Part shown: positions 10,717-27,139 of the stretch, piece by piece
Layout: every line of letters starts with the position of its first letter
Numbering within the stretch: position 1 is the stretch's first letter
The notes under the pieces: generated by a model
Database searches by the model: none
Seen by the model: the letters and a program-made list of their open reading frames with translations, nothing else
Told to the model about the DNA's origin: nothing
Assembly (NCBI GenBank): GCA_044229265.1
Contig: JBGATK010000001.1
Location: 1-33,775 of the forward strand
Direction: 5' to 3'
DNA length: 33,775 bases
Origin: Minisyncoccia bacterium
Lineage (GTDB): Bacteria > Patescibacteriota > Minisyncoccia > Phycocordibacterales > UBA9973
Translations under genes and position numbers: made by a program

Positions 10717-11010
10717 CTAATTTTCTCGCCAAGCCATGACTCGACCATTCAAATTATTACCCTTTTCGTCTAGCCACTTAAAGCCAGATCTTGAGTTATT
10801 AATCTTTGCTTCGATAACTCTACCCGTTCCCAAAACAACTAAAAACTTTTTGTTTTTATAGCGTCTTGGAAAAGGTAAAAATTTTCCGTTTACAACACCT
10901 TCTGTGCAACCCGGATTCTTTGCGATTAAATTATAAAGATGTTCAAAATCTCCAGCCTGTTTCAATCCTGAAACTTCAACAATTCTATAAACCATAACTT
11001 TATTTTTCAT
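10717..11010 (-). CDS. hypothetical protein (~97 aa)
   Basis: ORF followed by its own terminator; ATG at 11010 preferred over the track's TTG at 11016. Confidence 0.65.
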   Translation of the reverse strand: MKNKVMVYRIVEVSGLKQAGDFEHLYNLIAKNPGCTEGVVNGKFLPFPRRYKNKKFLVVLGTGRVIEAKINNSRSGFKWLDEKGNNLNGRVMAWREN

Positions 11011-11097
11011 TTTCAAAATTTAAAAAATATTTAAAAATTATTTAAAAACCTTTATTCCAAAAAAGATTCTACAATAAAAACGTGAGAAAGTCCAGTA

Positions 11098-11775
11098 TTA
11101 GCTATTCATGGTGTCGCTGACTATTTTACCATCAGCCATGGTAATAGTTCTGTGTGCGAGCTTGGCATATTCTTCTTCGTGAGTCACCATAAGTATAGTC
11201 TGCCCTTCTTTATTTAATTTAAGAAATGCTTGTATAACATTGTTTGAAGTTTCTGAGTCTAAGTTTGCAGTAGGCTCATCAGCAAAAATTATTTTCGGAT
11301 CATGTGCTATCGCCCTTGCTATAGAAACACGTTGTTGCTGACCTCCAGAGAGTGCTGCAGGCAAATTATTCATACGATCAAGCAAATCCACTTTCTCTAG
11401 AGCTTTTTTCGCTTTTTCTGTCGCTTCTTTTGTAGAATAACCTTGCATGATAAGAGGAACCATTGTGTTTTCAAGAGCAGTAAGTGAAGGCAGTATAGCG
11501 TAATCTTGAAAAATATATCCGAGATCATTGAGGCGCAGTGTAGTGCGAAGTGATTCTTTTATGCTTACGCACTCAGTACCATCAATAAAAACTTCACCAG
11601 AGGTTGGTAGATCAAGAAGTCCTAATTGATAAAGCAAAGTGGATTTTCCACTTCCTGACTTACCAGTTATAGTTAGGAATTGTCCTTGTGGAACAGAAAA
11701 AGAAAGATTATTTAAAGCGTAAATCTTACTATCGCCACTTTGGAATATTTTAGTTAAATTTTTTACTTCTATCAT
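11098..11775 (-). CDS. ABC transporter ATP-binding protein, LolD/MacB-type
   Basis: Walker A GKSGSGKST, signature LSGGQQQRV, Walker B IIFADEPTANLD, VTH switch. Confidence 0.96.
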   Translation of the reverse strand: MIEVKNLTKIFQSGDSKIYALNNLSFSVPQGQFLTITGKSGSGKSTLLYQLGLLDLPTSGEVFIDGTECVSIKESLRTTLRLNDLGYIFQDYAILPSLTALENTMVPLIMQGYSTKEATEKAKKALEKVDLLDRMNNLPAALSGGQQQRVSIARAIAHDPKIIFADEPTANLDSETSNNVIQAFLKLNKEGQTILMVTHEEEYAKLAHRTITMADGKIVSDTMNS

Positions 11776-11780
11776 AAATT

Positions 11781-13067
11781 TTATCTTCCTAAGATTGCTG
11801 ATAATGTATTTTGTTTTACGACTATTCTAGCTGGAATATAACCTGCAATAATTGTGGTAAATAACAAAATGCCAGCACGAATCATAGTTCCACTTAAAGT
11901 TGCAACTAAAATACCGTCAGAAAATGGGAAATCGATAGGGTTTTCAGCAAAATAAGGCTTGATAAAACCAAAAAGTAAAATCATACCTATGATTACGCCA
12001 AAAGTTGCGTAAAGTAAAGCTTGATACATATAAGAATACAAAATTGCTTTTTTGTTTATACCTATACCTTTTAAAATACCAATATACCTCCTGCGAGTAA
12101 TAGCATTTACGAAGATCACAATAAAAATTGTAATCGAAGCAACCACAAGACCAATACCAGAAATAGCTGAACCTAAAATTCCAAAAGTAGCTTTTATATC
12201 TTTTAAGAATTTTGGAAAAGCCTCTTCAGCTGTCTGCACCCGGGCATATTGCTCTACCCCGCTATCTATTAAAAATTGTTTAGTAATATTAGGATCAGTG
12301 CCAGGCAGAATTTGTATGGCAATAGAACCAGCATTTAAATTAGTTTGGTTTGATAATTTACGAGCTTCACTGGCGAGCATAACAATAGAAAAATCAAAAG
12401 TATCAACTTTAGAACTTAAAATTCCCTTCACAAAATACTCTTTTTGCACATTGCCAGAAGTAAGCCTAACCCTAGAACCTACATTTGTATTTTTCAAACT
12501 TTCAAAACCCGGAGCGTCTATCGGAGTAAATTCATATAAAAAATTCTTACCAATTAAAATACTATCAGCATCATTTTTGTCTAAATATTCTCCGCGTAAA
12601 ACGAATTTTGAAACTCCGGAAAATTTATCTTCTTTTTCAGGATCAATACCTAAAATTGGAGCCCCAGCACCACCTTTTTTCTCACCAGGTTTTACTGTAT
12701 CGCGATAAGTATCTTCGACACGAACCGAGCCACCATACCTAACAGTATGATTTTTATAACCCGGAATAGTTTTAACTATTTTTTCTACTTCTGGAGTTTC
12801 TAAAATTTCACTACGAGTTAAAAAAGGAGAAATAATTACGTCACCAATAGCGTATTTTTTCTGAGCATCTTCAGAGCCTTGAATAAGACCAATTAAAATA
12901 CCAGAAACTACAACTAGGTTAAGAAAAGTAAGAGTCATCACCGCTACGATAAGTGCTGTAGTCCAAATATTTGCCCTTTGCAATTCTCTACGCGCCAAAA
13001 ACCAGCCCACTATGACATTTTGTTTAAAAGAATCTTCAATTTTTAGCCTATCTTTAGAAGCGGACAT
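11781..13067 (-). CDS. ABC transporter permease, MacB/FtsX (type VII) family
   Basis: N-terminal TM, large extracytoplasmic domain, RRRYIGILKGIG coupling motif, three C-terminal TMs, YIPAR; ATG at 13067 preferred. Confidence 0.92.
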   Translation of the reverse strand: MSASKDRLKIEDSFKQNVIVGWFLARRELQRANIWTTALIVAVMTLTFLNLVVVSGILIGLIQGSEDAQKKYAIGDVIISPFLTRSEILETPEVEKIVKTIPGYKNHTVRYGGSVRVEDTYRDTVKPGEKKGGAGAPILGIDPEKEDKFSGVSKFVLRGEYLDKNDADSILIGKNFLYEFTPIDAPGFESLKNTNVGSRVRLTSGNVQKEYFVKGILSSKVDTFDFSIVMLASEARKLSNQTNLNAGSIAIQILPGTDPNITKQFLIDSGVEQYARVQTAEEAFPKFLKDIKATFGILGSAISGIGLVVASITIFIVIFVNAITRRRYIGILKGIGINKKAILYSYMYQALLYATFGVIIGMILLFGFIKPYFAENPIDFPFSDGILVATLSGTMIRAGILLFTTIIAGYIPARIVVKQNTLSAILGR

Positions 13068-13076
13068 TATTTTCAA

Positions 13077-14612
13077 TTATTTTTTCGTGATAAGTGCAAT
13101 TTTTTCGGTAGATTCTAAACCAGAAAGAACTTCTACCATATTACCATCACCTTTTACGCCGAGAGAAATTTCTCTTTCTATATATTTTTTTCTTTTCTCA
13201 TTTGTAATTACATGGGTAAAAGTTTTTCCATCACGGTCAAAAGTAGTTACTTCTGGAATTGAAAGAACATTTTCTTTTGCGGAAATCAAAATAGTAATCT
13301 CTGCATTCATTCCAGGGCGAATATTTATATCTTTATCGAGCAAGGCTACTTTAATTTTATAATTTACCACACCATCATTAGCCTCTGAAGAAATATCAAT
13401 ACTACTGACTGTACCAGTAAACTTTTTATCAGGCAAAGCATCCACTGCTACCTCGACATTTTGATTAAGTGTAATATTTGAAATATTATTTTCATTTATA
13501 TCAGCTTCTACGTATAAATTTTCTACATCTTGTAATGTAATTGCACTTTTGCCAGCTTCGATTTGTTCTCCATATTTTACAGAAACTCTAGTGATAGTAC
13601 CGCTAGCTGGGGCTCTAATCACACCATCTTCATATACAGCATTTGCTTTTTGTAAATTCGCTTCAGCTGACAGAACTTCTGCTTTAGCAAGTTCTATTTC
13701 TGAAGGACGAGCTAGAGCTTGTTTTACAGCAAGCTCAGCTTTTCTTTGTTCTACAAGAGAAAGTGCTGATGAGACAGCAGTATCTTTAGTGCGAATAGCA
13801 GAATTATAAGCATTTAAATTTGCAAGATAATCGCTAGCCTTTTTATTTGGTATAGAAATAATCCAATTTACAGAAGATACAGATCCTGACGGGAAAGTAA
13901 TATAAAGACCAGAATTACCAATAGCTTGTGCTACATCAGTAGAAAGAGGGCTAGACGAGGTAATTAAACCAGAAGTAGAAAAATTTGCACCTCCATTTGA
14001 ATTATATACATTTACATTTATGTCCCCTTCTTTGTTAAGAGTGTAAGTTCCAGAAATAGTTGGAGGAGTTATACTAGATCCATTACTCGCATTTACAGCT
14101 TCTAAATTAGAGTTCAGTAAATCCTTATATGCGTTCTCTACTAAAGTATTTTGTTTTAAAACTTCAGAATTATAAGCTGTTTCTGCATTTTTTAAAGCAA
14201 CCTTAGCTAAATCTATTTCCTCATTACTAGCACCTTCTAAAACTTTTTTAAGTTTTGCCTGTGCGCTAGCGAGCCCCGCCTGCGCTGACAACACATCGGC
14301 ATAAAGTGAGCCGGATTCTAGACTTGCGAGCAATTGACCTTGTCTTACTTTGTCACCCACTGCTACTTTTATATAGCGCACTGTGCCTTGCTTACTAAAA
14401 GAAAGATCTAAATCAGTATTGGAAGTAATTTGGCCAGTAGCTTGGACTGTTTTTTTCAGAGTTCCGAGAGTAGGATTAACAATAGCTACATTTTCATTAC
14501 TATTATTACCGAAAACTTTAAAACCAATAAATATTAAAACTAAAACAAGTGGTATAATAACCCGTTTTTTCTTGAAATACGGTTTAATTTGAGAAAATTG
14601 AAATTTTTGCAT
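13077..14612 (-). CDS. HlyD/MacA-family membrane-fusion (adaptor) subunit
   Basis: N-terminal TM, lipoyl half-motifs VAVGDKVRQGQLLASL and IRAPASGTI, coiled coil, IRPGMNA, VEVLSGL; start at 14612 preferred (TATAAT 6 nt upstream). Confidence 0.92.
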   Translation of the reverse strand: MQKFQFSQIKPYFKKKRVIIPLVLVLIFIGFKVFGNNSNENVAIVNPTLGTLKKTVQATGQITSNTDLDLSFSKQGTVRYIKVAVGDKVRQGQLLASLESGSLYADVLSAQAGLASAQAKLKKVLEGASNEEIDLAKVALKNAETAYNSEVLKQNTLVENAYKDLLNSNLEAVNASNGSSITPPTISGTYTLNKEGDINVNVYNSNGGANFSTSGLITSSSPLSTDVAQAIGNSGLYITFPSGSVSSVNWIISIPNKKASDYLANLNAYNSAIRTKDTAVSSALSLVEQRKAELAVKQALARPSEIELAKAEVLSAEANLQKANAVYEDGVIRAPASGTITRVSVKYGEQIEAGKSAITLQDVENLYVEADINENNISNITLNQNVEVAVDALPDKKFTGTVSSIDISSEANDGVVNYKIKVALLDKDINIRPGMNAEITILISAKENVLSIPEVTTFDRDGKTFTHVITNEKRKKYIEREISLGVKGDGNMVEVLSGLESTEKIALITKK

Positions 14613-14645
14613 ATATGCATTATACACGAAATTATATTTTTAGCG

Positions 14646-14683
14646 AATAAAAAAAACCGGAATTTATTCCGGTTTTTTTTATT
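14646..14683. terminator. strong bidirectional-type terminator closing the leader-family gene array
   Basis: Perfect 18-bp inverted repeat aataaaaaaaaccggaat / attccggttttttttatt. Confidence 0.85.
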
Positions 14684-14692
14684 ACTTATTTA

Positions 14693-14845
14693 CTAGAAAC
14701 CACCAAGATCATCCTCTACTATAAATGAATTAACTGAATTTAGATTTTTAATTGCATAAGCCTGAAAAGCTACAAAAAGTGACACGATTATTATAGAGGC
14801 TACACCTAGGCCAGCTAAAACATTTTGTATATTTACCTTTTTCAT
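14693..14845 (-). CDS. 50-aa protein with the cluster-specific leader (not in the ORF track)
   Basis: Manual translation MKKVNIQNVLAGLGVASIIIVSLFVAFQAYAIKNLNSVNSFIVEDDLGGF*; same leader motif and spacing as the six upstream genes; fills the gap between the previous stop and the terminator. Confidence 0.85.
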   Translation of the reverse strand: MKKVNIQNVLAGLGVASIIIVSLFVAFQAYAIKNLNSVNSFIVEDDLGGF

Positions 14846-14851
14846 ATAGAT

Positions 14852-16021
14852 TTAAGGATTTATCGGAGGAGTATAAGGTTCTCCCTCTTCGTAAACCGGA
14901 ATATATCCTTTTTTAGTATTAGTAAAAGTACAAACAATTTCTTCTCCAGGTCCTGGAATAAAATTTAATTTTGTACCTGTACCTTTTATGTCAGGCTTTG
15001 CTCTATATCCTGCTGGAACTTTAATTTTACAAAGATATTTTGCATTAGTTGTAGAATCTGGAGTTTCTGAAATATCATAAGAAAGTATTTTACCTAAATT
15101 ATCTGTTGTGTAGATAGTAAAAGTATATTGTTTAGGATATTGAGATTTTGGATCAAGATCACCTATACCGTCATCATTAAGACGAATTGTTTGAGTATTG
15201 AACACTTTACCATCACTATTTTTACCGGTTATTTCAAAAGGAAAAACTTTCGGAGATTGTCCTGGAACATAATCTTTTATTATGGTTAATTTCGCAGTAT
15301 TACCTACTGGAGCTGTGATCAAAGTATTAGTAAATTCACATAAAACACTATAAAAAGGTTGAGGATCAAAAGGCCTACCAGTTTCAGGATTATAAAAACC
15401 TTCAGCTCTTTTGTTGTTTATCTCAACATTATTACCATCTCCTTTTATGTATAAAGCTGGATATGGTGGGTTTCCTGAACTTTTATCAAGTTCTGCAAAC
15501 CATTTACCAGTTGCAGGCTCCCAAATACCTCTATGACAAGAATACGAGGTTTTTATATTGCTTAGCTGAGTAATTTCGGTAATGTTAAATGTATCGAAAG
15601 AATCTTCAGTATTTTGCTTCTTTGCATCATCTCTATGCCATTTTACTAAACCCGCTTTATTATCTACAGCGTAAAGTTCACCACCTTTCAAACTAAAATT
15701 AATTACTTTATCTCCTTGAGTTAATTTAAAATCAAAAGCTCCTAAATCATAAGGCGGCACATTTGGATCCACATATTTTTTTACAACACAAACTCTTGTG
15801 CCTACAGGACAAGGGTTTGAAACACCCGCTACACTTTCTTCTGTATCGTATACATTTGAAATTTCATTCTTATCAGAATATAGCGACGAATCACTACCTG
15901 TGCTACCCAAATCGTAATTCGCAAAGTTTGGAATAGCGATCATTAATGCTACTGCAAGTATTGCCATTGTACCAATACCAGCTAAAACATTTTTTACATG
16001 TATTCTCATATTTTCACTCAT
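14852..16021 (-). CDS. exported protein with conserved leader and 2 CnaB/SpaA-like domains
   Basis: Leader KNVLAGIG...NFA; domains VVKKYVDP..ITE..SC..CEFTN and LTIIKDYVP..ISE..LC..CTFTN; Pro-rich tail. Confidence 0.85.
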   Translation of the reverse strand: MSENMRIHVKNVLAGIGTMAILAVALMIAIPNFANYDLGSTGSDSSLYSDKNEISNVYDTEESVAGVSNPCPVGTRVCVVKKYVDPNVPPYDLGAFDFKLTQGDKVINFSLKGGELYAVDNKAGLVKWHRDDAKKQNTEDSFDTFNITEITQLSNIKTSYSCHRGIWEPATGKWFAELDKSSGNPPYPALYIKGDGNNVEINNKRAEGFYNPETGRPFDPQPFYSVLCEFTNTLITAPVGNTAKLTIIKDYVPGQSPKVFPFEITGKNSDGKVFNTQTIRLNDDGIGDLDPKSQYPKQYTFTIYTTDNLGKILSYDISETPDSTTNAKYLCKIKVPAGYRAKPDIKGTGTKLNFIPGPGEEIVCTFTNTKKGYIPVYEEGEPYTPPINP

Positions 16022-16055
16022 ATTTTTTTTAGTTAATAATAATTAAACTTTAAAT

Positions 16056-19000
16056 TTATTGATTTCCTCCACCACCTAAAGTACTTCCTCCTCCAACAAT
16101 CTTTCCAGGATCATTTGGATCACCGTATAGTGGGCAAAGAAGACCATTTGTACAGTTAGTAAAAGTACATTCTACATCATATCCTTTTGGAACCAAGAAA
16201 TTAGGAGTTTCCCTGCTATCAGCAGAAAATGGTTTATAAAGTGGACTTGTAGGTATGTATTTACATGAATAACTACTTACTGGATAAGATGTATTCAAAA
16301 TCTCTTTAATTCTATAAGTTTTTCCTGCTTCTACTGTAATATCTTCTTTGCCTAAGTGAGTAAGTTTTACTATTTTCTTCAAAGAAGAACCTTTAAAGAA
16401 TTGGAAACTAAATAATACTCCGGTAGATGCTGGAACTGTCTTTTTGATTATAGTTACTGTTTGATTAAAGGATTTCTTTACATTAGTTATAGTACAAATT
16501 ACATGATCGCCTTTATTTATTGGAACATTCAATATAGAAGCACTATTAGGAGCACTCTTTACAATAACATTTCCTAATTTACACTCCCAAGATGGAATAT
16601 AATTAATTTCTTGCTCAGTGGTCATTTCTTCTAAGAATGAAAACCGAAGTAATGCTGGATTTACAGTAATAGTATCTTCATTCGGATAAGTAGGATCATT
16701 TTGATTATCGTCTAGAGGTTTTAGATTGTAATTTTCAGTACTGTTTTCTATTTGGAATACTTCTTTATCATCAGTAATATCAGTACCATCGTCTTTCTTT
16801 ACATCTTTTCTAATTGTAATTAAGGTACTAATTATAGTATTCACAAAAGTACAAGTCATAGATTCATTTGTACCTAGAGTTGGTGCAATAAAGCTTGCGC
16901 CAGTTCCACTGGAATTATTACGATCAGTACACTTCCAAGTAGTTTTGTAATTTGATGCTTGTTCTGGAGTCAAATCTTCTGTAAAAGTATATGTTCCACC
17001 AGCTGGTATGGTAATTTCTTTTGTAGAATCATAAGTTTGGTCAGAGTTATCATCTAAGTAAAACTCTCCGATGCCAGTATCATTTAATATTTTGAAAACA
17101 TTAGTATCCTCATCTTTACCTACTACGTCTTTAGCTATAATCAAAGTAGCGACTGCTTTTGTATTCGTAAATGTACAAGTAGCAGTTTGATTATCATCGA
17201 GCTTGATATCGGCATCGTCTGTGCCTTGGCCTTGATCTAAAATATTTCCTGTTTTGTCATCTACACATTTAAAGGAAACAGTGTATCCAGATGGAATAGA
17301 AATTTCAGAGAAAGCATAATTAGTATTTGGAGTAAGTTCAAAAATTTTCTCAGATGGGTCAGGTAAGTTTGCATTATCGTCTAATTTGAATATCTCGCTA
17401 GTATTGTGATTTCTAAAACTAAATACTCCATTATCATCAGTGAGATCTTTTCCATTTGAAGCTACAACATCTTTTTTAATTTTTAAAGCTGATGCAACTT
17501 CTTTATTTGTTAGAGTACACTGAACTCTTTCTCCTGATTTAAGATCTGGAATATTTACTTTAGCCACATTATTAGCTGTAATTGGTTGTCTTGTTGATGG
17601 TGATAAGAAAACACAATAATAACTAGGAATATAAGAATGAAGAGGGTCATTACCAAATTGTTCTATCAAATACTCATTTACTGTTATATCTCCAGGGCGA
17701 ACTTCCCAAGTTTGATTATGGTCATGTAAAATTGGCTTTTCTTCTCCTTTTGTTAAATCTGAAGAAGGACCAACACGCACATGAGCTACATCATCATAAT
17801 CCCATGCATCATCACCTATTAGATCGAATTTTTTGTGTACGAAAACGAGCGCATCTGGTAATTGCTTATTAGTAAATGTACATGTAATACCGTAATTATC
17901 AATATTTAGATTAGTTAATTCTACCTTTAGCCCTTCACCAGCTTTTAATTGAGTGCCATTGTGATCTACACACTCATAAGAAGTCTTGTACTGTAATCCT
18001 TGATCATGAGTTAGATTTTCTGTAATTTTTATACCGTCATTAGTATTAAAATACAATTTCTTTTCAGAATCTGGAGCTTGATTTGGATTACCGTCAAGAT
18101 TAAAAGGATTTATTTGAAGATTAGTTATGAATTCAAAAATATTATTATCATTTTGAATTTCATTGCCATTTTGATCTAAGACAACCTTCTTTACGGTTAC
18201 ATCCAAAAGATGATTTGTAAAAGTACAAATTGCTTTTTGTGATGCTCCCAAAGAAATCCCTATCTTTTTTGCTTCTTTATCATCTTCACTGTATTTATTT
18301 CCAGTTGCATCGTAATAATCGCAATGAATACTTGTTCGGTAAGCACTAGACTGACTATTGGATAGTAATTCTTCTAAATTATATTGAGCAGAAGGTTTAA
18401 TGTAATAAGAAGGATTAGTTTCTTCCCCATTACGCAAGCTAAACTCTGCTAATCTGACTTGATTAACTAAACCGATGCCGAAATTAAAGTGCTCATCATT
18501 GGTATTTGGTGTTGGATCCACTATTTTCTTTACAACAAGCTCTGGGTTCTTTGTGTTAGTAAAAACACAATCTAGGGTTTCTCCAGCATCAAAAGTATAA
18601 TCAAAAACACTTTTATTAGTGATCGTGAAAGATTTTGAAGGAATACTACTTGTGCAAGATATATTAGTAGAATATTTTGGATAAAACTGAGGAGAATCAA
18701 CTCTAGTTCCAGAGTATTCTGAAACATTAAAATGAATTCCGGATATCATTTTTGTAGAATGAGTTTCATTATCTCCTAAGAAAAAATAATCATAACCATT
18801 GGAATGCTCATTGTCATTGTCTGTAAATATATCAAAATCAACTTTATCAGAACTATCAGGTTCGATATTCTTGGTTATATTTAAAGTAGCAGTAGCAAGA
18901 ATATTCGTAAATTCACAAGTCATAGGGTCGTTTTCTTTTAATTCAACACCCAAACCTAAAATATCGTAGGTCTTAGTGCCAAAACCATGAATGTCTCCTT

Positions 19001-19415
19001 CCCCACGGTGATTATCGTAATAACATTCCCAAGAAGTATTATATGTATCTTTTACAGGGGTTTCTTCGATAACATGAAGCCCAGGAGAATATCCTGCATA
19101 TACAGTTCTTGATTTAGGTTCAGGATAATTTGGATCAGCATCTACGCCGTCATCATCTAAAGTTTCTCCGAAAACAAATATATTACCAGTTGATCTAACT
19201 TTATAAACTTTAAAATCAAATTCTATATCTCTGTGATTACTAACATCATGCGTAGACGGAGGTACAACATGTTTTATAATAGTAAGTTGTGCTGTGCCAG
19301 TGCTACTGACACTTGCAAAACTCATAATACTTAGCACACCGAGTAATACGACCACAGCACCTGTTCCGACACCTGCTAAAATATTTTTTATATGTAATCT
19401 CATATCTTTGCTCAT
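16056..19415 (-). CDS. large exported protein with conserved leader and 9 tandem CnaB/SpaA-like domains
   Basis: Leader KNILAGVG...SFA; nine ~110-125-aa repeats ending CEFTN, CVFTN, CTFTN, CTFTN, CTLTN, CTFTN, CTFVN, CTITN, CTFTN; Gly-rich tail. Confidence 0.88.
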   Translation of the reverse strand: MSKDMRLHIKNILAGVGTGAVVVLLGVLSIMSFASVSSTGTAQLTIIKHVVPPSTHDVSNHRDIEFDFKVYKVRSTGNIFVFGETLDDDGVDADPNYPEPKSRTVYAGYSPGLHVIEETPVKDTYNTSWECYYDNHRGEGDIHGFGTKTYDILGLGVELKENDPMTCEFTNILATATLNITKNIEPDSSDKVDFDIFTDNDNEHSNGYDYFFLGDNETHSTKMISGIHFNVSEYSGTRVDSPQFYPKYSTNISCTSSIPSKSFTITNKSVFDYTFDAGETLDCVFTNTKNPELVVKKIVDPTPNTNDEHFNFGIGLVNQVRLAEFSLRNGEETNPSYYIKPSAQYNLEELLSNSQSSAYRTSIHCDYYDATGNKYSEDDKEAKKIGISLGASQKAICTFTNHLLDVTVKKVVLDQNGNEIQNDNNIFEFITNLQINPFNLDGNPNQAPDSEKKLYFNTNDGIKITENLTHDQGLQYKTSYECVDHNGTQLKAGEGLKVELTNLNIDNYGITCTFTNKQLPDALVFVHKKFDLIGDDAWDYDDVAHVRVGPSSDLTKGEEKPILHDHNQTWEVRPGDITVNEYLIEQFGNDPLHSYIPSYYCVFLSPSTRQPITANNVAKVNIPDLKSGERVQCTLTNKEVASALKIKKDVVASNGKDLTDDNGVFSFRNHNTSEIFKLDDNANLPDPSEKIFELTPNTNYAFSEISIPSGYTVSFKCVDDKTGNILDQGQGTDDADIKLDDNQTATCTFTNTKAVATLIIAKDVVGKDEDTNVFKILNDTGIGEFYLDDNSDQTYDSTKEITIPAGGTYTFTEDLTPEQASNYKTTWKCTDRNNSSGTGASFIAPTLGTNESMTCTFVNTIISTLITIRKDVKKDDGTDITDDKEVFQIENSTENYNLKPLDDNQNDPTYPNEDTITVNPALLRFSFLEEMTTEQEINYIPSWECKLGNVIVKSAPNSASILNVPINKGDHVICTITNVKKSFNQTVTIIKKTVPASTGVLFSFQFFKGSSLKKIVKLTHLGKEDITVEAGKTYRIKEILNTSYPVSSYSCKYIPTSPLYKPFSADSRETPNFLVPKGYDVECTFTNCTNGLLCPLYGDPNDPGKIVGGGSTLGGGGNQ

Positions 19416-19531
19416 ATTGTTAAAACCCTAAAAATTAGGATATGTTAGTAATAATTAAAAAAGCTAAAATCTGCACATTTATTATATAACGTTTCAAATC
19501 ATATTCATAGTATTTTGTGGAAAACTATATG

Positions 19532-20935
19532 CTACTGTGATTTTTGGCTACGAGTATTTACGCCAGCTGGACCTGTTTTAAGGGTATTTGTATAAACACA
19601 ATAAACTTCTTCGAATTTCCTTCTATCTAGCTTAATAAATGCTTTTGAGTCGTATATATCTGTACCTCCAGAAGGATCAGTACAACTAACTACTGTATTG
19701 TAGTCCAAATATTTACCTTCAAAAATAGTAAAAACCTCATCTTTTTGAATTGGTCTTGTAATTTCTAGGATTTCGGTATTTTTATCTGTTTTTTTACCTC
19801 CATTTATAAGGCTAAATTGCTCTTTATCTAAAAAATCTTTAAAAAAACGGAAAGATTTCATGCTATCGGGTATAGTATCTTTTTCTACGACTATTCTTCC
19901 GCAGAGTTTATATATCTTATTTACTCCACCATAAGTATTTATATACACAATATCGTTATCTATAGCTATAGAATTCGGTGAATCAAAATATGAATTTCCA
20001 TTTATTTCATAAATACTCCACTTTTCTGTAGAAATATCTAATTTTTGCACTCTATCATTACCTGTATCAGCCACATACACATTCCCAGCGTTATCTATAG
20101 CTATGCCTTCTGGACCATCAAAACCACCTAGCCCATCACCAGCATCACCTGTTTGCCAGGAAAAACCATATTCTTTAATTAATTTACCGTCTAAACCAAA
20201 TTTAAAAACTCGATTCGCATAAGCATCTACTGCGTAGATGTATTCCCCCACAGCTAGTGCTTTTGGACCAGCGAACTTGCCTCCATTGTATTCATTTGTT
20301 TGCCACTGTGCCTTTGGCAGTGTGCCTACTGCTCCAAAAGTATAGATAGTGTTATTATTTTCATCATTTATTATATATAAATTGTTATTTTTATCTAAAG
20401 CTAGAGCGTAAGGATGTGGAAATGGTGTAAAAGAGGTTTTTTGACCATTAAATTCTTGGAAAATAGAGATTGGTGGTAGAGTAAGCTTTTCTTCATTACC
20501 AGCAACGCTAAAACGACGAACTTGATTACGCAAATTCCCCTTAAATTCATGTTGATCTACTACATAAGTATTACCCAGTTTATCTACTGCGACAGAAAGA
20601 GGGTTGTCCAAACCTGAAATATCTTTTTCAAAAGTTCCATCGCTATTATAAACTTTGATTTTATCAAAAAGAGAGCTTACAAAATAAACATTGCCTTTAT
20701 CATCGGTAAAAATGCTAGCGTACTGATTTTCAGGAGAATCTGGAACAAAGGTTTTTACACCATAAACATTAGATTCACAAATTATATCAGTATTAGATGT
20801 ATCACCTTTTAAAACTACAGGTGTAATAGATTCATTAGGATCGTAAGCAAAATTCACCAAACCCAAAGAAACTAAAAAGGCCAATACAACCAAACTCCCA
20901 ACTCCGGCTAAAACATTCTTATAATGTATTTGCAT
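19532..20935 (-). CDS. exported NHL-repeat beta-propeller protein with conserved leader and 1 CnaB/SpaA-like domain
   Basis: Classic NHL repeats FDGPEGIAIDNAGNVYVADTGNDRVQKL and LDNPLSVAVDKLGNTYVVD; C-terminal IVVEKDTIP...CVYTN. Confidence 0.88.
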   Translation of the reverse strand: MQIHYKNVLAGVGSLVVLAFLVSLGLVNFAYDPNESITPVVLKGDTSNTDIICESNVYGVKTFVPDSPENQYASIFTDDKGNVYFVSSLFDKIKVYNSDGTFEKDISGLDNPLSVAVDKLGNTYVVDQHEFKGNLRNQVRRFSVAGNEEKLTLPPISIFQEFNGQKTSFTPFPHPYALALDKNNNLYIINDENNNTIYTFGAVGTLPKAQWQTNEYNGGKFAGPKALAVGEYIYAVDAYANRVFKFGLDGKLIKEYGFSWQTGDAGDGLGGFDGPEGIAIDNAGNVYVADTGNDRVQKLDISTEKWSIYEINGNSYFDSPNSIAIDNDIVYINTYGGVNKIYKLCGRIVVEKDTIPDSMKSFRFFKDFLDKEQFSLINGGKKTDKNTEILEITRPIQKDEVFTIFEGKYLDYNTVVSCTDPSGGTDIYDSKAFIKLDRRKFEEVYCVYTNTLKTGPAGVNTRSQKSQ

Positions 20936-20947
20936 ATGTTTATTATA

Positions 20948-22777
20948 TTACTGCTCATTTTTAGAATCTAGTGTTCCATCTGTGGGCTTTTGAAGTCCGG
21001 TAGTTTTAGTATTAGTAAAAGTACAAATAACTATAAGGCCTCTTTGCATATACACTTGCACTTCTGTGTCTGTAGTTTTTAGTGGATTATTTTCATCTAT
21101 AACTTTTTTGCTTACGAAAGGCTTATAAATGGAATGCCCGTCTACTTCGCACTCTATTTTCGTAATATAACCTTCACTCGAGACATCATGCTCGCGAATA
21201 TTATAAGAACCATCTTCTAATACAAATTCTTTTTCATTACCACCAGAAAGAGAGAAAGTTTCCAAAATACCATTTACATAATCAGTAGGATTCACTAAGT
21301 CAAAATCAAATACACGCCCAGTATTTGGCTCTTCTATCTTTTTAATTATTAATTTCCCTTTATTTGCTTCATTTAAAAATGTACACAAAACTTTACCCTG
21401 ATTTTCTTTATTTAATTTTATTTTTACGATATTTTGATTCGTAATAGTTTGCCCTGAAATATCATCGCAGGAAACGCTGGGATTATATTTAGGGTTAAAT
21501 TCTTCACGCACAGTAAAAGTAGTGTTTTCATCAAATGCTTCCCAGATGTCAAAAGTATTTTTAGCTTTATCTTGTAAAGTAAAATTATTTTTATCTAAAA
21601 AATCTTTACTGAACACAAAAGAATCCAAAGCATTATTGCTGACATTTTTTTCAATAGTAATTTCTCCGCATTTAGTTTTGAATTTATATATATTACCTAT
21701 GCTTGCTGCAAAGAAGTTTCCCTCACTGTCGGAATCAAAATCAAAAAAATGATAACCTGGTGCTTGCCATCCTTTGATTAAAACACCATCAGAATTATAA
21801 ATTCTGAAAACATTTTGCCGAGCAAAACCATTTTTATCTAAATCCTTTGGATTTTTTAATAGCACACCCAAATTCCCATCTTTATCGATATTTACACGAG
21901 CAAAAGTTTGCTCTTTTTCTTCTTCTTTAAATTTTTGGACTACTCCATTTATTACTTCCCTTTTTTCTTGACGCTTGTAAAATGGCGAATCTTCAATCTT
22001 GGTATCAATCATTACTAAATTCTGATCATAACGCAAAATCGTGCTTATATATTCATAGCCAACTAGTATGTCATACTTGCCATTCTTCTTATTGTAATCA
22101 AAAATACCCTTTTCTACATTCATGGGCACATATACAGTACCATCTGCCCCTACTGCCATGTCTGGATAAATATCTAGTTTATGAACAAGATTATTTTGCT
22201 TTTTTAATTTTCCATTTAAATCGTATTTTTTTAATCCAGAATTATCAGAACCGAGGACAAATAAAAATTCACCGTAGCCATCAATAGAACGCGCATAGAT
22301 ATTATCCCAAAACGCTGGAGTAAGAGGTGTTCCAGATAAATCATATCTATATACCTTACTGAGCAACCTGTCGCCAGAAATATATGCTATGCCACGAACT
22401 TCATCTATATACATACCAACCAAATCATAAGATTGTTCTTTATAATTCGTACTATCTACTAAAACAGAATAATTCTTACCATCAGCACTATCAAATTTTT
22501 CTACTTGATTGTGTCCTGTAAAAATCGAATATATTTTGTTATTAGAGTCTATAAAAATACTTGTACCATTTTTTATATCGCTACGAGTTGGAGTTATGTA
22601 ATTTGAATACAAATCATAATTATCATATGGACAAATTGTAGCACTAGAAAATAAATCGGCTTCGTTGAGACCACTCAAATCATCACTGGCTTTAGAAAAA
22701 AGCCCCAAGATGAGAACAAAGGATAATACAGCCAAACCTCCAACCCCCGCTAATATATTTTTATAGTTAATATTCAT
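20948..22777 (-). CDS. exported beta-propeller protein with conserved leader and 2 CnaB/SpaA-like domains
   Basis: Degenerate NHL-like blades (DMAVGADGTVYV, DFDSDSEGNFF); ITIEKNV...CTFLN and LIIKKIEEP...CTFTN. Confidence 0.82.
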   Translation of the reverse strand: MNINYKNILAGVGGLAVLSFVLILGLFSKASDDLSGLNEADLFSSATICPYDNYDLYSNYITPTRSDIKNGTSIFIDSNNKIYSIFTGHNQVEKFDSADGKNYSVLVDSTNYKEQSYDLVGMYIDEVRGIAYISGDRLLSKVYRYDLSGTPLTPAFWDNIYARSIDGYGEFLFVLGSDNSGLKKYDLNGKLKKQNNLVHKLDIYPDMAVGADGTVYVPMNVEKGIFDYNKKNGKYDILVGYEYISTILRYDQNLVMIDTKIEDSPFYKRQEKREVINGVVQKFKEEEKEQTFARVNIDKDGNLGVLLKNPKDLDKNGFARQNVFRIYNSDGVLIKGWQAPGYHFFDFDSDSEGNFFAASIGNIYKFKTKCGEITIEKNVSNNALDSFVFSKDFLDKNNFTLQDKAKNTFDIWEAFDENTTFTVREEFNPKYNPSVSCDDISGQTITNQNIVKIKLNKENQGKVLCTFLNEANKGKLIIKKIEEPNTGRVFDFDLVNPTDYVNGILETFSLSGGNEKEFVLEDGSYNIREHDVSSEGYITKIECEVDGHSIYKPFVSKKVIDENNPLKTTDTEVQVYMQRGLIVICTFTNTKTTGLQKPTDGTLDSKNEQ

Positions 22778-22816
22778 GATTAAATTATATCACTTTTTTA
22801 AAAAAAATTACTTAAT

Positions 22817-24277
22817 TTATAATTCATCATTCTGCAGAGAAATAACAGTATTGGTAAATTCACATATTACTTCTTCGTCATTATCCAAACTTATATTAGC
22901 TTGAGCATTACCAGGAAAAAGAGTTGTATTTTGACTTGGGTCTGTGCATTTCAAAGTCCTCTTATATACTGAATTAGATTTTTCAGAAACAATGTATTTA
23001 CCATTTTCAAGCATCTTGAAAGTAATACTATTTGAGAGAGCAGCACCAGAATCAGACAAAGTGAAAGTAGAAGTTTTATTCTTTTTTATATAAAAACTAT
23101 TTGACTTAGACATTTTGTCGAAATTTTTATTGAAAGTAAAAATAGTATCACTGTTTGGCACAGTATCTTTTTTAATAGTTATTTTCCCACAAAGCCATTT
23201 TGGAGAGTATTTTACGATCTTACTTCCACTAGAAAATAAAATATAAATACTACCATCACTATCTATAGTCATATCAGACACGGATCCAGATTTATTTAAA
23301 GGAATATCTAAAATAAATTTTCCATCTGGACCATATTTTTTAATTTTCGTTGCAGGATTACCGCTTGCAAAATAAACATTTCCCGCACTATCCACCTTTA
23401 GATTAGTAGCATTAGGACCTGTTTTATCTATAAATACTTTTGAAGACTTTTTCACACCATTTACAATTTCAAAAAATTTTACTTGACCTAAAGTTTGGTC
23501 CAGCACTAACAAATTACCTTTTGCATCTGTAGCAAAGCCAGAAATACCATTAAAATTCTTTTCTGAGTTATTCCAATTGTCGCTATTGTCTGAAGGCGAA
23601 TCTGGTAAATTATTTACTTGATTCAAAATACTTATACCCTTACTATTGCTCATGTAAAGATTTGAAATAAAGATAGTGTCAAGCGTAGAATTAGGCCCAG
23701 TAGCTATAAGAGCTGGTACTACAATTTTATCTAAATTAACTTTTTCCTCTTTCTTGCTACCATCCACAAAGAATTTCCATGCTGTACCAGAGCGATTTAG
23801 GTCTGATCTATTATTACCAATATTTTCTGATACATACATATTGCCTATCCTGTCAAAGACAATAGAATCTATCAAATTATCAAATACATGATCCTCACCG
23901 GGGAAATTACCATAAATCTCTGCTCCATCTGCATTAAATCTCCTAATTTTTTTATTATTTACATCGCCAACATAGAAGTTTTTAGATAATTTATCATAAG
24001 TAATAGCAGTTATGCTTCCGAAAGCAAAACCATCTTCTTCTACATATTCTGTTTTTGAAATGCATTCATTTATATCTCTACTTACGGCAATTGAATCTAA
24101 ATCAGATTCTGTGCTTACATTAAATTCATTTGAATTTGTGTCTACAAATGTTGAGTCATTAAGAGTATTTTCTAAACCTAAATCATTTGCACTAGAAAAC
24201 ATACCCACGATAACTACTATCATAAGTACGCACATACCCCCAACTCCTGCTAAAATGTTTTTGAAATTAATATTCAT
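22817..24277 (-). CDS. exported NHL/SMP-30-like beta-propeller protein with conserved leader and 1 CnaB/SpaA-like domain
   Basis: Blades FATDAKGNLLVLD, LKVDSAGNVYFA, MTIDSDGSIYIL; ITIKKDTVP...CEFTN. Confidence 0.85.
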   Translation of the reverse strand: MNINFKNILAGVGGMCVLMIVVIVGMFSSANDLGLENTLNDSTFVDTNSNEFNVSTESDLDSIAVSRDINECISKTEYVEEDGFAFGSITAITYDKLSKNFYVGDVNNKKIRRFNADGAEIYGNFPGEDHVFDNLIDSIVFDRIGNMYVSENIGNNRSDLNRSGTAWKFFVDGSKKEEKVNLDKIVVPALIATGPNSTLDTIFISNLYMSNSKGISILNQVNNLPDSPSDNSDNWNNSEKNFNGISGFATDAKGNLLVLDQTLGQVKFFEIVNGVKKSSKVFIDKTGPNATNLKVDSAGNVYFASGNPATKIKKYGPDGKFILDIPLNKSGSVSDMTIDSDGSIYILFSSGSKIVKYSPKWLCGKITIKKDTVPNSDTIFTFNKNFDKMSKSNSFYIKKNKTSTFTLSDSGAALSNSITFKMLENGKYIVSEKSNSVYKRTLKCTDPSQNTTLFPGNAQANISLDNDEEVICEFTNTVISLQNDEL

Positions 24278-24305
24278 GATTAAATTATATTAATATTTTA
24301 GGAAA

Positions 24306-24902
24306 TTATTTTCTTGTATTAGTAAAAGTGCACACGACTTCTTCAGTAGATCCAATTGTAAATACTGGGGTTTTTCTGCCTGTGCCTGTTATATACCTAA
24401 CACGATTAACTTTTTTCACCGTTGAAGTAAATTTACAAACAGAAGAAGTATTGTATACATCTAAACCTTCTGGGTGATTAATCGTAGAAACTTCTTCTAC
24501 ATAATACGGCTCATTTCTAAAAACAACAGTGGAAGCCTTTGAAATTGGAGGAATATTATAATCATTGTCGTAAAGTACCATTATACCAGCTGTAGTATTA
24601 CCTATATCTGTTCGCTTAATATTCATAACATATTGAGGATTAGGTGGTTCTGGATTTGGTCCTGGTTTATTTTTATCAGGATCTACTTCTACTATTGTAT
24701 AAAGATGAACCAACTCAGAGCCTGCTAAAAGTGAATTCGTTTGATCTATATTATTATTGTTAGTAGTGGATAAATTACTGGATGTAGTATTTCTTGGACC
24801 CAAACTACTAGCATCTGAGAACAAACCAACATATAGAGAAGTTAAAATTATAACAGCACTACCCAAACCTACTAGAATATTTTTAAAATTTATTTTGTGC
24901 AT
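24306..24902 (-). CDS. exported protein with conserved leader, Ser/Thr/Asn linker and 1 degenerate CnaB/SpaA-like domain
   Basis: Leader KNILVGLG...SDA; YYVEE..YNTSSVC..VVCTFTN. Confidence 0.82.
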   Translation of the reverse strand: MHKINFKNILVGLGSAVIILTSLYVGLFSDASSLGPRNTTSSNLSTTNNNNIDQTNSLLAGSELVHLYTIVEVDPDKNKPGPNPEPPNPQYVMNIKRTDIGNTTAGIMVLYDNDYNIPPISKASTVVFRNEPYYVEEVSTINHPEGLDVYNTSSVCKFTSTVKKVNRVRYITGTGRKTPVFTIGSTEEVVCTFTNTRK

Positions 24903-24949
24903 TAAGATTATATTATTTTTTAATATTAATATTATACATTAGTAAAATT

Positions 24950-24979
24950 CAAAAAGCACACCTTTCGGTGTGCTTTTTG
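24950..24979 (-). terminator. intrinsic terminator after fusA
   Basis: Minus strand CAAAAAGCACACC-GAAA-GGTGTGCTTTTTG, perfect 13-bp stem. Confidence 0.9.
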
Positions 24980-24991
24980 TTTTTTAAATTT

Positions 24992-27139
24992 TTATTTTCT
25001 AGCAGCGATGATAGTATCAGCGACATTTTGTGGAACAACATCGTAACGCAAGAATTCCATAGTGAAACTCGCACGGCCTTCAGTCATAGAACGCAGGCCA
25101 GTCATGTAACCGAACATTTCAGAGAGTGGAACTATAGCTTTTACTACTTTGTTCATTCCTCTGTCCTCCATACCTTCGATAAGTCCACGTTTTGAAGACA
25201 GGTTTCCTGTAACGTCACCCATGAATTTATCTGGAGTAACAACTTCTACTTTCATCATAGGCTCTAGGATCACAGGCTTTGCAGAGCGACAAGCGTCTTG
25301 GATAGCCATTGACGCTGCAATTTTGAAAGCCATTTCGTTTGAGTCCACTTCGTGATAACTACCGTCCCAAAGGTCAACAGATACATTTACCATCTTAAAT
25401 CCTGCAAGGATACCTCTGTCTAACCCTTCTTTAAATCCTTTTTCACAAGGGGCAATGTACTCTTGAGGAATAGCACCACCTTTAATACTATTTATGAATT
25501 CAAATCCTTCAGAACGCTTGGTATTTTTTGGCAAATCAGCGATTTCTTCTTTTGTCATCATTACCATTGGTTTGATTTTGATTTTTACGTGGCCATAGTT
25601 ACCGCGACCTCCAGATTGCTTGATGTATTTACCTTCAGCATCAGCTGTGCCTATAATGGTTTCTCTGTAAGCTACTTGAGGCTTGCCAACATTGGCTTCC
25701 ACAGTAAATTCTCTTTTCATACGATCCACGATAATCTCAAGGTGAAGTTCACCCATACCTGCGATGATAGTCTCGCCTGTTTCTTGATCTGTAGATACTT
25801 TAAAAGTAGGGTCTTCTTGAGCGAGGCGGTTTAATGCCATACCCATTTTCTCTTGGTCAGCTTTTGTCTTTGGTTCAATACGAAGAGAAATAACTGGCTC
25901 TGGGAAAACAATACGATTTAATTCGATTGGTTTTTCTTCATCACAAAGAGTGTCGGAAGTTATAGTATCTTTGAGGCCAACCGCTGCTGCTATTTCACCA
26001 GCAAAAACTTTCTTTACTTCTTCACGATCATTCGCATGCATACGAAGAATACGGCCTATGCGTTCTTTATTGCGAGTACGAGGATTATAAATATAACTAC
26101 CTGCAGATACAGAACCAGAATAAACTCGGAAGAATATGAGCTGTCCTACGAATGGGTCTGTAGCCACTTTGAAAGCAAGAGCTGAAAATGGTTCAGAGTC
26201 AGAAGCTTTTCTTTCATCTGGAGCATCGTTGTTTGGGTTAATGCCTGGTATTGGAGGAATATCAGTCGGCGCTGGCAAATAATCCACCACAGCATCAAGC
26301 ACTAGTTGCACGCCTTTGTTTTTTAGAGCAGAACCTGCAAAAACTGGGAAAATTTTATTTGCAATTACCGCACTGCGCATAGCTTTTTTAAGAACATCTA
26401 TATTTGGCACAATGCCTTCTAAGTATTCTGTCATCATAGCATCATCAGTTTCCACGATTTTTTCTATGAGTTCTGCATGATAACCTTTTGCTTCCTCGAG
26501 CATATTTTCTGGAATTTCTTTTTCGATAACTTTATTACCCATATCACCTTCGAAGTAATATGCTTTCATTTTTAGAAGGTCGATAACACCTTCATGGTTT
26601 TCTTCAAGTCCTATAGGAATCTGATAACGAACAGCTCTTTTTGAAAGTCTGTCTAAAATAGTAGCGTATGATCGTTCAAATGAGGCGCCTGTACGATCAA
26701 GTTTATTTATAAAACAAATACGAGGAACATTTGCTTCGTCAGCATAACGCCAGTTGGTTTCGGATTGAGGTTCTACGCCGGCTACACCGTCGAATACCAC
26801 TACTGCACCGTCGAGCACGCGAAGAGAACGCTTTACTTCCACTGTAAAGTCTATGTGTCCTGGTGTGTCAATAATATTGAATCTGTGTTTTAGAGCTTTG
26901 TTTGTTAAATCATAAGTCGGAGTCCAAAAACATGTGACAGCCGCAGAAGTGATAGTAATACCGCGTTCGCGTTCTTGCTCCATCCAGTCTGTAGTGGTCT
27001 CACCATCGTGAACTTCACCTATTTTGTGTGATACACCTGTATAAAAAAGCACACGCTCGGTAGTGGTAGTTTTACCAGCATCGATGTGGGCTATGATTCC
27101 GAAATTTCGAACTTTTTGTAGTGGATAATCTCTTTCCAT
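24992..27139 (-). CDS. fusA: elongation factor G
   Basis: [41 protein letters not shown]. Confidence 0.99.

Follow-up and report, generated by a model that had tools for sequence, protein, structure and literature searches.

A rare, mosaic island of predicted exported, adhesin-like proteins sharing one leader between fusA and tuf of a Minisyncoccia bacterium

The first 33,775 bases of contig JBGATK010000001.1 (C3:1-33775) in the Minisyncoccia bacterium assembly GCA_044229265.1 (640,461 bases in 11 contigs, 97% complete), hereafter the window, carry on the minus strand rpsL, rpsG, a small variable spot, fusA, seven genes whose products begin with a common leader, hlyD, a permease gene, an ATPase gene, open reading frames (ORFs) of 99 and 532 amino acids (aa), tuf and rpsJ, in that order (Table 1). 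An initial annotation of this DNA had treated the seven co-oriented genes as one unit, and this holds: all seven ORFs are present, and a loose leader pattern run genome-wide on every stop-to-stop frame of 40 aa or more gave eight matches, namely the seven N-termini of the array and one internal chance match in a 45-aa frame on contig C8. The domain counts given there (a 1-domain protein, three proteins with a propeller and immunoglobulin-like (Ig) domains, a 9-domain rod, a 2-domain protein and a 50-aa mini-protein) are likewise recovered when units are delimited by their Cys pair and last strand.

The consensus of the seven N-termini is M-x-[ILV]-[NH]-h-[KQ]-N-[IV]-L-[AV]-G-h-G, followed by a hydrophobic stretch and then an invariant Ala, and in 19-residue windows this leader is the sole hydrophobic segment of each protein. 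A 33-position profile of the leader scored 55.8–63.3 bits against the array proteins (63.3 bits for g198, 56.4 bits for g50), while the best score in 300 other genomes of the same order was 20 bits; the five weak matches found there (16–20 bits) were set aside as chance. The bodies of the paralogues are at most 33% identical and their leaders 28–69%, and in leader pairs 3–12 of the 7–20 identical residues use a different codon, which argues against recent gene conversion. Across 37 rows of the family, including relatives outside this genome, there is no insertion or deletion between Asn0 and Ala+23. Asn0, Gly+4 and Gly+6 are present in all 37 rows, Leu+2 and Ala+23 in 36 and Lys-1 in 34, with Gly+18 in 22 and Ser, Asn, Ala or Thr at +21 in 35.

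The classic signal peptidase I pattern consists of Ala at -1, a small residue at -3 and a helix breaker at -6. Counted from the conserved Ala as -1, the leader has Gly at -6 and a small residue (Ser/Asn) at -3, and the single signal peptidase I of the genome is of the bacterial type (TIGR02227, 140.3 bits; 30.5 bits for the archaeal-type model, cut-off 51.85). The leader therefore looks like a cleavable Sec signal peptide and would most likely be cut at this site. What sets it apart is the invariant K-N-[IV]-L-A-G-x-G motif at the boundary of its n- and h-regions, the position occupied by YSIRK/GS motifs elsewhere; by analogy with those, K-N-x-L-A-G-x-G may tune where, when or how efficiently the proteins are exported.

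The leader profile was also searched against 1.84 billion representative proteins (E≤0.001), giving 30 matches, 29 of them within the first 36 residues: three window proteins, 26 others of 50–1118 aa, and P0022, a 976-aa GC-rich repeat ORF that was dropped from the family as spurious. Leader homologues thus co-occur with the same kinds of domain (the initial annotation had named the opposite outcome as refuting its idea), the leader being N-terminal in the 26 non-window proteins and Ig-like domains being found in the 24 larger members that were scanned (Pfam: SpaA_4 in 15, SpaA_3 in 7, NHL in 6, Kelch in 2). Aligned with one another, the non-window members keep both Cys and the Asn without exception, with a conservation of 90% or more for Lys and Glu. 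All of these members come from metagenome assemblies, and grouping them by longest contigs of equal size, the sole basis for co-location, places six together (47,292 bases), five (19,300), four (17,308), two (17,603) and two (8,756), which suggests that they lie several to a contig, in arrays. Head type and head position both vary within the family: in P0026 and P0028 the order is reversed, so that the Ig-like domains follow the leader and a Kelch-type propeller forms the C-terminus. Searches of metagenome contigs of the Joint Genome Institute confirmed none of 70 pattern matches to the rod alignment and none of 122 to the leader pattern, and a search of genome contigs with the rod alignment gave one weak single-domain match (L047, 31% identity). 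The leader defines a real, small and undescribed protein family; no published description of the leader or of the peptide discussed below was found in the literature, where the supplements of PMC13278184 and PMC12617251 may list relatives.

Behind the leader, the six large proteins are built from Ig domains with or without a propeller: the rod (g1119) has nine Ig units, g389 and g609 two each, and g198, g486 and g467 one each. The CnaB/SpaA-type domains and NHL heads of the initial annotation are confirmed by Pfam as SpaA_3, SpaA_4 and NHL. The rod matches SpaA_4 at 104.9 bits (cut-off 27.3) and SpaA_3 at 94.1 bits (cut-off 24), and g609 matches SpaA_4 at 35.5 bits (cut-off 27.3), while g198 (SpaA_3, 20.8 bits against the cut-off of 24), g486 and g389 fall under the SpaA cut-offs and are joined to SpaA_3/SpaA_4 by alignment. 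SpaA_3 (PF20674) and SpaA_4 (PF24514) are described in a 2025 survey (PMC12617251) as predicted intramolecular isopeptide domains with a Lys-Glu-Asn triad and prevalent disulfides. In 15 aligned Ig units of the window the first-strand Lys is present in 14, the Glu in 15 and the Asn in 15, the last count holding by construction since units were cut at the Asn motif. The Ig domains thus carry the Lys-Glu-Asn isopeptide signature together with a Cys pair, from which both bonds would be predicted, and, read against the survey, the triad marks them as putative force-resistant stalk domains.

Each of the nine rod units has a Cys pair and a C-x-F-x-N last strand, and two full-length homologues (P0002, 50% identity; P0003, 44%) have the same leader and the same tail. 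At the rod C-terminus (16056-16160, minus strand), a Cys-x5-Cys loop and a G-G-G-x-x-x-G-G-G-G-[NS]-Q tail are kept in both homologues; in several other family members a short Cys-x(5-8)-Cys loop is terminal, directly behind the last strand. Neither the rod nor g389 has a sequence match in the Protein Data Bank (PDB), and in the ESM Atlas g389 returned prealbumin-like clusters alone, which are leads only. The small protein g198 ends in C-T-F-T-N and has Cys156 and Cys191; its single-sequence AlphaFold2 model has a mean confidence (predicted local distance difference test, pLDDT) of 34.9, so its fold and first strand are ambiguous, and its T-I-V-E-V-D stretch is positioned differently by two alignments. 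In all but one of the six large proteins the leader is followed by a low-complexity linker of 20–60 residues rich in Ser, Asn, Thr and Asp.

Among the window proteins the propeller is shown directly in g467, with an NHL match of 51.8 bits (cut-off 20). An AlphaFold2 model built from a 16-row alignment (pLDDT 75.6, predicted template-modelling score 0.73) gave six-bladed NHL propellers as its best Foldseek matches in the PDB, including Pizza6, TRIM2/3/71 and the PknD ectodomain (E 1e-13 to 4e-17; TM-score 0.74–0.82, normalised to target). The C-terminal Ig domain of g467 was modelled with nine strands at a pLDDT of about 90 and, in this model, looks complete and not strand-deficient. For g486 the propeller follows from paralogy with g467 (29% identity over 410 residues, E 1e-14), its Pfam matches to NHL (17.6 bits), Reg_prop and SpaA being weak, at or under their cut-offs; for g609, which has a close homologue in P0015, it rests on an alignment with propeller proteins and weaker paralogy. 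Across 16 propeller relatives K352, E406, N450, C418 and C446 (g467 numbering) are invariant. A Cys directly before the Ig domain is also invariant in the propeller proteins, with a second Cys at the start of the propeller, and this pair suggests a disulfide that would close the propeller.

The mini-gene g50 is real. Three non-identical small homologues (P0012, P0020 and P0040, of 50, 63 and 53 aa) keep the leader and differ in spacer length, and all four proteins end in I-V-E-D-D-L-x-[GP]-[FW]. In a six-frame translation of the genome g50 is the motif's sole occurrence in a leader protein. Elsewhere in the family P0032 (185 aa) consists of a leader and eight tandem copies of the motif with Lys-rich spacers between them, again with a motif at the end, and it has no usable match in the ESM Atlas. 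The g198-like proteins P0018/P0037 have Y-I-V-E-D-E-L-N-P-W between leader and body, P0036 has a degenerate motif in that position, and T-I-V-E-V-D in g198 is a degenerate form at the place of the P0018/P0037 motif. The F-I-V-E-D-D of g50 resembles the first strand of the g467 Ig domain, I-V-V-E-K-D, with Lys replaced by Asp, a likeness over seven residues that is a lead only. Candidate roles for the peptide are a docking strand, a secreted ligand or signal, and a displayed tail.

Table 1. Features of the window, with the seven leader genes in transcription order followed by boundary elements and neighbouring genes.
Feature	Coordinates	Strand	Description
g198 (198 aa)	24306-24902	-	Leader, Ser/Asn/Thr-rich linker, T-I-V-E-V-D stretch, Pro-rich linker, one SpaA-like Ig domain
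g486 (486 aa)	22817-24277	-	Leader, linker, propeller bracketed by Cys72/Cys363, one Ig domain
g609 (609 aa)	20948-22777	-	Leader, linker, propeller-like region (Cys49/Cys370), two Ig domains
g467 (467 aa)	19532-20935	-	Leader, linker, six-bladed NHL propeller (Cys53/Cys345), one Ig domain
g1119, rod (1119 aa)	16056-19415	-	Leader, 9-residue linker, nine tandem SpaA_3/SpaA_4 Ig domains, C-terminal Cys loop, Gly-rich tail ending NQ
g389 (389 aa)	14852-16021	-	Leader, linker, two Ig-like domains; mosaic with P0011
g50 (50 aa)	14693-14845	-	Leader, 10-residue spacer, C-terminal F-I-V-E-D-D-L-G-G-F; starts 6 nucleotides (nt) past the g389 stop
Coding stretch of F-I-V-E-D-D-L-G-G-F (g50 C-terminus)	14696-14725	-	
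Upstream boundary, after fusA	24950-24979		Hairpin, terminator-like; 13-pair stem, 6 G-C pairs, T-run on both strands
TGTATAAT, putative extended -10-like promoter element	24931-24938	-	Read in the sequence, 29 nt ahead of the array's first ATG
Downstream boundary, ahead of hlyD	14646-14683		Hairpin, terminator-like; 17-pair stem between A- and T-runs
rpsL	28554-28976	-	
rpsG	28022-28492	-	
Stand-alone GIY-YIG nuclease-domain ORF (84 aa)	27689-27943	+	64.5 bits
ORF (91 aa)	27281-27556	-	No family match
fusA	24992-27139	-	Elongation factor G, 1077.8 bits
HlyD-family adaptor	13077-14627	-	
FtsX/MacB-type permease	11781-13076	-	
ATP-binding cassette (ABC) ATPase	11098-11775	-	
Protein (99 aa)	10717-11016	-	No Pfam/PHROGs match
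Multi-pass membrane protein (532 aa)	8957-10555	-	No Pfam/PHROGs match; in 3 of 211 other genus genomes
tuf	7494-8687	-	

The bounding terminators reported by the initial annotation correspond to hairpin-like sites at both ends of the array, the downstream stem being one pair shorter than the 18 claimed. Ahead of the first gene, TGTATAAT may function as the promoter element of the array, judging from its sequence; in two same-genus relatives, G327 and G002, a terminator, then TG-n-TATAAT, then a start codon likewise precede hlyD. Intergenic gaps within the array are 6–39 nt, except for 116 nt at 19416-19531 between g467 and the rod gene, where an internal promoter may lie. No direct repeats flanking the island were found, the repeats detected being the segments that code for the leader and for the last strand. 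A second variable spot lies inside the str operon, between rpsG and fusA, and there G327 has a different ORF of 180 aa.

The array is rare. The rod is in none of 24 same-genus genomes, and weak one- or two-domain matches to it occur in 1 of 16 same-order and 9 of 400 phylum genomes, the order- and phylum-level relatives all having genomes of 0.4–1.3 Mb, a size in keeping with the candidate-phyla-radiation label of the initial annotation. Of 211 other genus genomes, one has the leader, and this count rests on G781, an unpublished genome. HlyD homologues, on the other hand, are present in 26 of 30 other genus genomes, and five hlyD loci of relatives were inspected. In G327 and G002, fusA is followed by a terminator, TATAAT, the hlyD-permease-ATPase triple, one or two variable genes and then tuf, without leader genes, and in the other three loci the triple lies elsewhere. 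The adaptor, permease and ATPase genes that the initial annotation had noted do follow the array, but the HlyD/MacB-like/ABC genes are not part of the leader system: the triple without the array in G327 and G002 indicates that the array either entered between fusA and an older hlyD unit or disappeared from other genomes. Gene content varies in the fusA-tuf gap. Its site between the ABC ATPase and tuf holds other genes in relatives (317 aa in G327, 416 aa in G002), and the 532-aa membrane protein encoded there in the window was rejected as a dedicated sorting enzyme, none of the three genus genomes that carry it having the leader. None of nine proteins (the seven array proteins and the two downstream ORFs) matched PHROGs, so a phage origin is unsupported.

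Mosaicism is visible in g389, which shares its first 50 residues (92%) and its C-terminal tail with P0011, while the middle is an Ig domain in the former and an NHL propeller in the latter, pointing to cassette exchange between conserved ends. Parts of the island were found in 20 public runs from 10 studies, labelled wastewater, freshwater or bioreactor, and eight of these runs hold half or more of the island's sampled words, one of the eight possibly being the source of this DNA. Contigs of run X2, which is among the eight, cover nearly the whole island, one of them spanning the hlyD-g50-g389 junction. In one wastewater run, a 9-base in-frame insertion in g467 (19657) and small indels in the g389-rod intergenic region (16023-16033) point to strain-level variation of the island. 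Two metatranscriptome libraries of one study gave contigs with 151–272-base pieces of the rod gene and g467 (0–4 differences), compatible with transcription of the island or with DNA carry-over. Run shares below 0.2, and island parts left uncovered by contigs of the RNA libraries, were not used in judging habitat or silence.

Known anchors and assembly factors were looked for by sequence. The initial annotation had seen no sortase, LPxTG, C-terminal transmembrane helix or canonical prepilin site, and all four absences stand, that of sortase now extending to the whole 97%-complete genome (PF04203, 0 matches; the same search was positive in 3 of 14 reference genomes). The seven proteins contain no LPxT[GASN] motif, no C-terminal membrane helix, and no wall-binding domain recognisable by Pfam, and the array proteins no TasA-like domain by the same means. 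No PapD-like chaperone (PF00345) was matched in the genome by sequence, although Pam chaperones were themselves recognised by predicted structure. SipW-cognate signals (TIGR04088) gave no match at E≤10 genome-wide, and there is no SipW/archaeal-type signal peptidase besides the sole, bacterial-type enzyme. None of the seven genes matched YSIRK (TIGR01168/PF04650), the only TIGR01168 match in the genome lying elsewhere at 15 bits, under the cut-off. Of the prepilin signature (basic residue, Gly-1, Phe/Met+1, Glu+5) the leader lacks the basic -2, Phe/Met+1 and Glu+5. A prepilin peptidase is encoded (47.1 bits, C6:65619-65951) together with four canonical type IV pilin-like ORFs of the form K-K-G-F-[ST]-L-[IL]-E (C6:64159-66784 and C3:49743), three of them beside the peptidase, and the genome therefore has an ordinary type IV pilus set besides the island.

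Several known systems resemble the island in part. With LPXTG adhesins and sortase pili (MSCRAMMs, SpaA, RrgB) it has in common tandem Ig stalks with Lys in the first strand, Glu, and Asn in the last strand, Sec signal peptides, the combination of a binding module with a stalk, and clustered genes; however, it lacks sortase, LPxTG, C-terminal helix and charged tail, and has instead NHL/Kelch propeller heads, a Cys pair per domain and one private leader. The likeness to the SpaA_3/SpaA_4 proteins of the 2025 survey lies in direct Pfam matches (the rod, g609, and 15 and 7 of the 24 scanned family members), the triad and the frequent disulfide, whereas the combination of leader, NHL heads and mini-peptide is absent from the main text of PMC12617251, in which Patescibacteria are mentioned 0 times. 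YSIRK/GS signals of staphylococci and streptococci also place a motif with an invariant Gly at the n/h boundary of a cleavable, in other respects normal Sec signal in a set of surface proteins, and are reported to direct trafficking to the septal membrane (PMC12637556); the island differs in motif sequence, in giving no TIGR01168 match, and in having no sortase or wall anchoring to follow. SipW-cognate signals of the TasA/camelysin type are similarly family-specific, borne by co-encoded extracellular proteins and Phe/Ser/Ala-rich in the cleavage region, but the island has no TIGR04088 match, a bacterial-type signal peptidase and no TasA-like domain.

The closest precedent within the candidate phyla radiation (CPR) is the Pam pilus (PamA/PamB; Troman et al., bioRxiv 2026, PMC13278184), which is reported as a sortase-independent pilus of Ig-like pilins joined by donor-strand exchange, with PapD-like chaperones bearing C-terminal helices, a small membrane-tethered terminator (PamR) proposed as strand donor, a pilin made of a nine-strand sandwich, a donor linker and a truncated C-terminal Ig domain, and Sec signal peptides throughout. 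A sortase-independent Ig-fold pilus of the CPR is therefore already in print, but the island does not show the Pam hallmarks. Compared with Pam, the island has a CPR-type small genome, no sortase, Sec signals, Ig folds with paired Cys and a multi-subunit operon in common, and PamR is a formal parallel to the mini-protein; it differs in that its domains are SpaA_3/SpaA_4 with a closing triad and that the g467 Ig domain, the sole one modelled, is complete. Outside the CPR, TasA is a further sortase-independent donor-strand fibre. Archaeal threads are reported to combine donor strands with isopeptide bonds (10.1101/2022.04.26.489512) and give a sortase-independent precedent for a beta-sandwich fibre.

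On balance, the locus is probably an island, rare and mosaic, whose exported adhesin-like proteins have in common a private signal peptide that is probably cleaved and bears a routing-type motif; a conserved small peptide accompanies them. The seven genes would form a strain-variable accessory operon, with its own promoter-like element and terminator, placed between fusA and the older hlyD-macB-like ABC unit, and its products would be three propeller heads on Ig-like stalks, a 9-domain rod, two small Ig proteins and a small exported peptide. An isopeptide bond and a disulfide in each Ig domain would let these domains withstand force outside the cell. The leader would act as a family-specific Sec-type signal, made up of the K-N-x-L-A-G-x-G motif, a fixed 16-residue stretch and an [SN]-x-A end cut by signal peptidase I, and its motif would steer export and be no building block of the final structure. 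The proteins would then probably attach to the surface of a host or partner, with heads swapped by recombination between conserved ends; by analogy with known adhesins, a host-attachment role in an episymbiont, which the initial annotation had also proposed, is plausible. Its accompanying idea, that the shared leader holds a fibre together or routes it, finds no support, given that a leader of cleavable Sec anatomy would be removed, that the one modelled Ig domain looks complete and that no assembly factor was found; fibre assembly is unsupported. The domain types and the kind of signal are already known, and what is new is the leader family and the peptide motif.

Some observations weigh against this account. 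The case for cleavage is the -6/-3/-1 pattern alone, in which Asn, a non-classic residue, stands at -3 in 5 of the 37 rows, and a simple signal-peptidase site would not be expected to have the conserved Asn-Tyr behind the Ala. Both the fixed length of the leader and its invariant residues exceed the needs of an ordinary signal peptide and could reflect a dedicated partner. An adhesive role is argued from the likeness to Gram-positive adhesins and from the propeller's PknD/TRIM-type fold, and a plain battery of adhesins leaves the conserved mini-peptide and its 8-copy relative unexplained. Moreover, if the leader is cut, nothing known would hold the proteins on the cell, there being no C-terminal anchor, LPxTG or recognisable wall-binding domain. 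Tethering would account for retention if the leader remained as an uncleaved N-terminal transmembrane helix, with the linkers spanning the wall, the Ig and propeller modules projecting beyond it, and the mini-protein as a small membrane protein with an acidic tail; its standing as the only hydrophobic segment, the long linkers behind it, and a fixed helix length with an invariant Gly-x-Gly, as fits a helix with a specific partner or packing, all agree with such an anchor. We nevertheless regard it as unlikely, since Gly(-6), Ser/Asn(-3) and the invariant Ala(-1) follow the pattern of an enzyme that the genome encodes, the site in the mini-proteins is even A-x-A, and the propeller heads would lie nearer the membrane than the Ig domains, the reverse of usual adhesins. 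It is harder still to credit that the leader is an aberrant class III prepilin-like signal, cut after an invariant Gly at the cytoplasmic face, and the proteins modular pilins on type IV pili. The conserved residues do lie at the n/h boundary, where prepilin peptidases cut, with two invariant Gly, a peptidase is encoded, and type IV pili are reported to be central to CPR-host contact (PMC12206443); yet all four pilin candidates of the genome are canonical (K-K-G/F-[ST]-L-[IL]-E, cut between G and F, with Glu+5), and the leader, besides lacking the prepilin residues, has a short hydrophobic stretch ending in a signal-peptidase I motif and is followed by flexible linkers in place of a pilin globular domain. 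We consider this reading barely tenable.

The mini-peptide invites two further explanations. In a sharpened form of the modular appendage put forward by the initial annotation, the products would assemble without sortase through donated beta-strands: the peptide could dock, through I-V-E-D-D-L-x-G-F, into the Ig domain of a neighbour, so that the mini-protein would be the base or anchor of an appendage in which propellers and rod are exchangeable distal modules, as in Pam pili, archaeal threads and TasA. The conservation of the motif in the four mini-proteins, its eight copies in P0032, its place between leader and body in P0018/P0037 and P0036 with the degenerate form in g198, its likeness to the g467 first strand, and the longest contig of 8,756 bases that P0032 and the g198-like P0037 both have are all in keeping with docking. 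There is CPR precedent in the donor-strand Ig pili with disulfides and a strand-donating, membrane-tethered terminator (PMC13278184), and archaeal threads are reported to join donor strands with isopeptide bonds (10.1101/2022.04.26.489512). But among the seven proteins the motif is in g50 and, weakly, g198 alone, leaving most subunits without a donor strand; the g467 Ig domain has a full strand set, and the triad implies a closed domain that leaves no groove open; sequence searches found no PapD-like chaperone, and none of the proteins in the cluster ends in a membrane helix; and the mini-protein could not anchor anything if its leader is cleaved. An Ig domain is about 4 nm long, by which estimate the 9-domain rod reaches about 35 nm without polymerisation. 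Complex prediction with g467 (50-455), g198 (55-198) and g50 (21-50) scored 0.00 in two runs made without controls and counts neither way. We judge docking of this kind improbable, and attach the same low probability to its boldest form, in which K-N-x-L-A-G-x-G would be a new class of sorting signal and IVEDDLxGF a mimic of the Ig first strand without the reactive Lys, the two together building a sortase-independent modular appendage whose modules are delivered to one site and joined through the mini-protein or the 8-copy scaffold. Alternatively, the C-terminal nonapeptide could be an exported signal or ligand, the 8-copy relative a poly-precursor cut at its basic spacers, and one or more propellers an extracellular receptor, as proposed for the PknD ectodomain. 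Phr-type and alpha-factor-type precursors offer an analogy, for a signal peptide, a variable spacer (10–24 residues) and a conserved peptide exactly at the C-terminus recur in all four mini-proteins, P0032 has eight copies with Lys-rich spacers and the motif at its end, and PknD's extracellular NHL domain appears at ranks 37 and 44 in the structural matches to g467. The array, however, encodes neither a receptor kinase or response regulator nor an Opp-type importer or processing protease, past the leader the propeller proteins are without any membrane-spanning or cytoplasmic part for signalling, and a motif inside larger structural proteins (P0018/P0037, P0036) better fits a structural element, so that a signalling peptide seems very improbable.

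Ultrasmall bacteria are thought to live attached to other microbes, and few contact molecules are known beyond type IV pili and Pam pili. If the island does encode exported adhesin-like proteins, as we favour, the locus offers a compact, testable set: a private signal peptide, putative force-resistant stalks, swappable propeller heads, and a nonapeptide in up to eight tandem copies. Its patchiness (1 of 211 other genus species and a handful of metagenome contigs) and its mosaicism fit fast-evolving determinants of host range or surface recognition. Should the leader motif steer exported proteins to one defined place, it would rank as the first signal of its sort beyond the Firmicutes-type YSIRK class and would give a handle for finding surface proteins of the CPR. 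If the peptide docks modules, it would represent a new assembly principle, and a modular appendage, if real, would be a second CPR-specific route, besides Pam pili, to structures for contact with the host.

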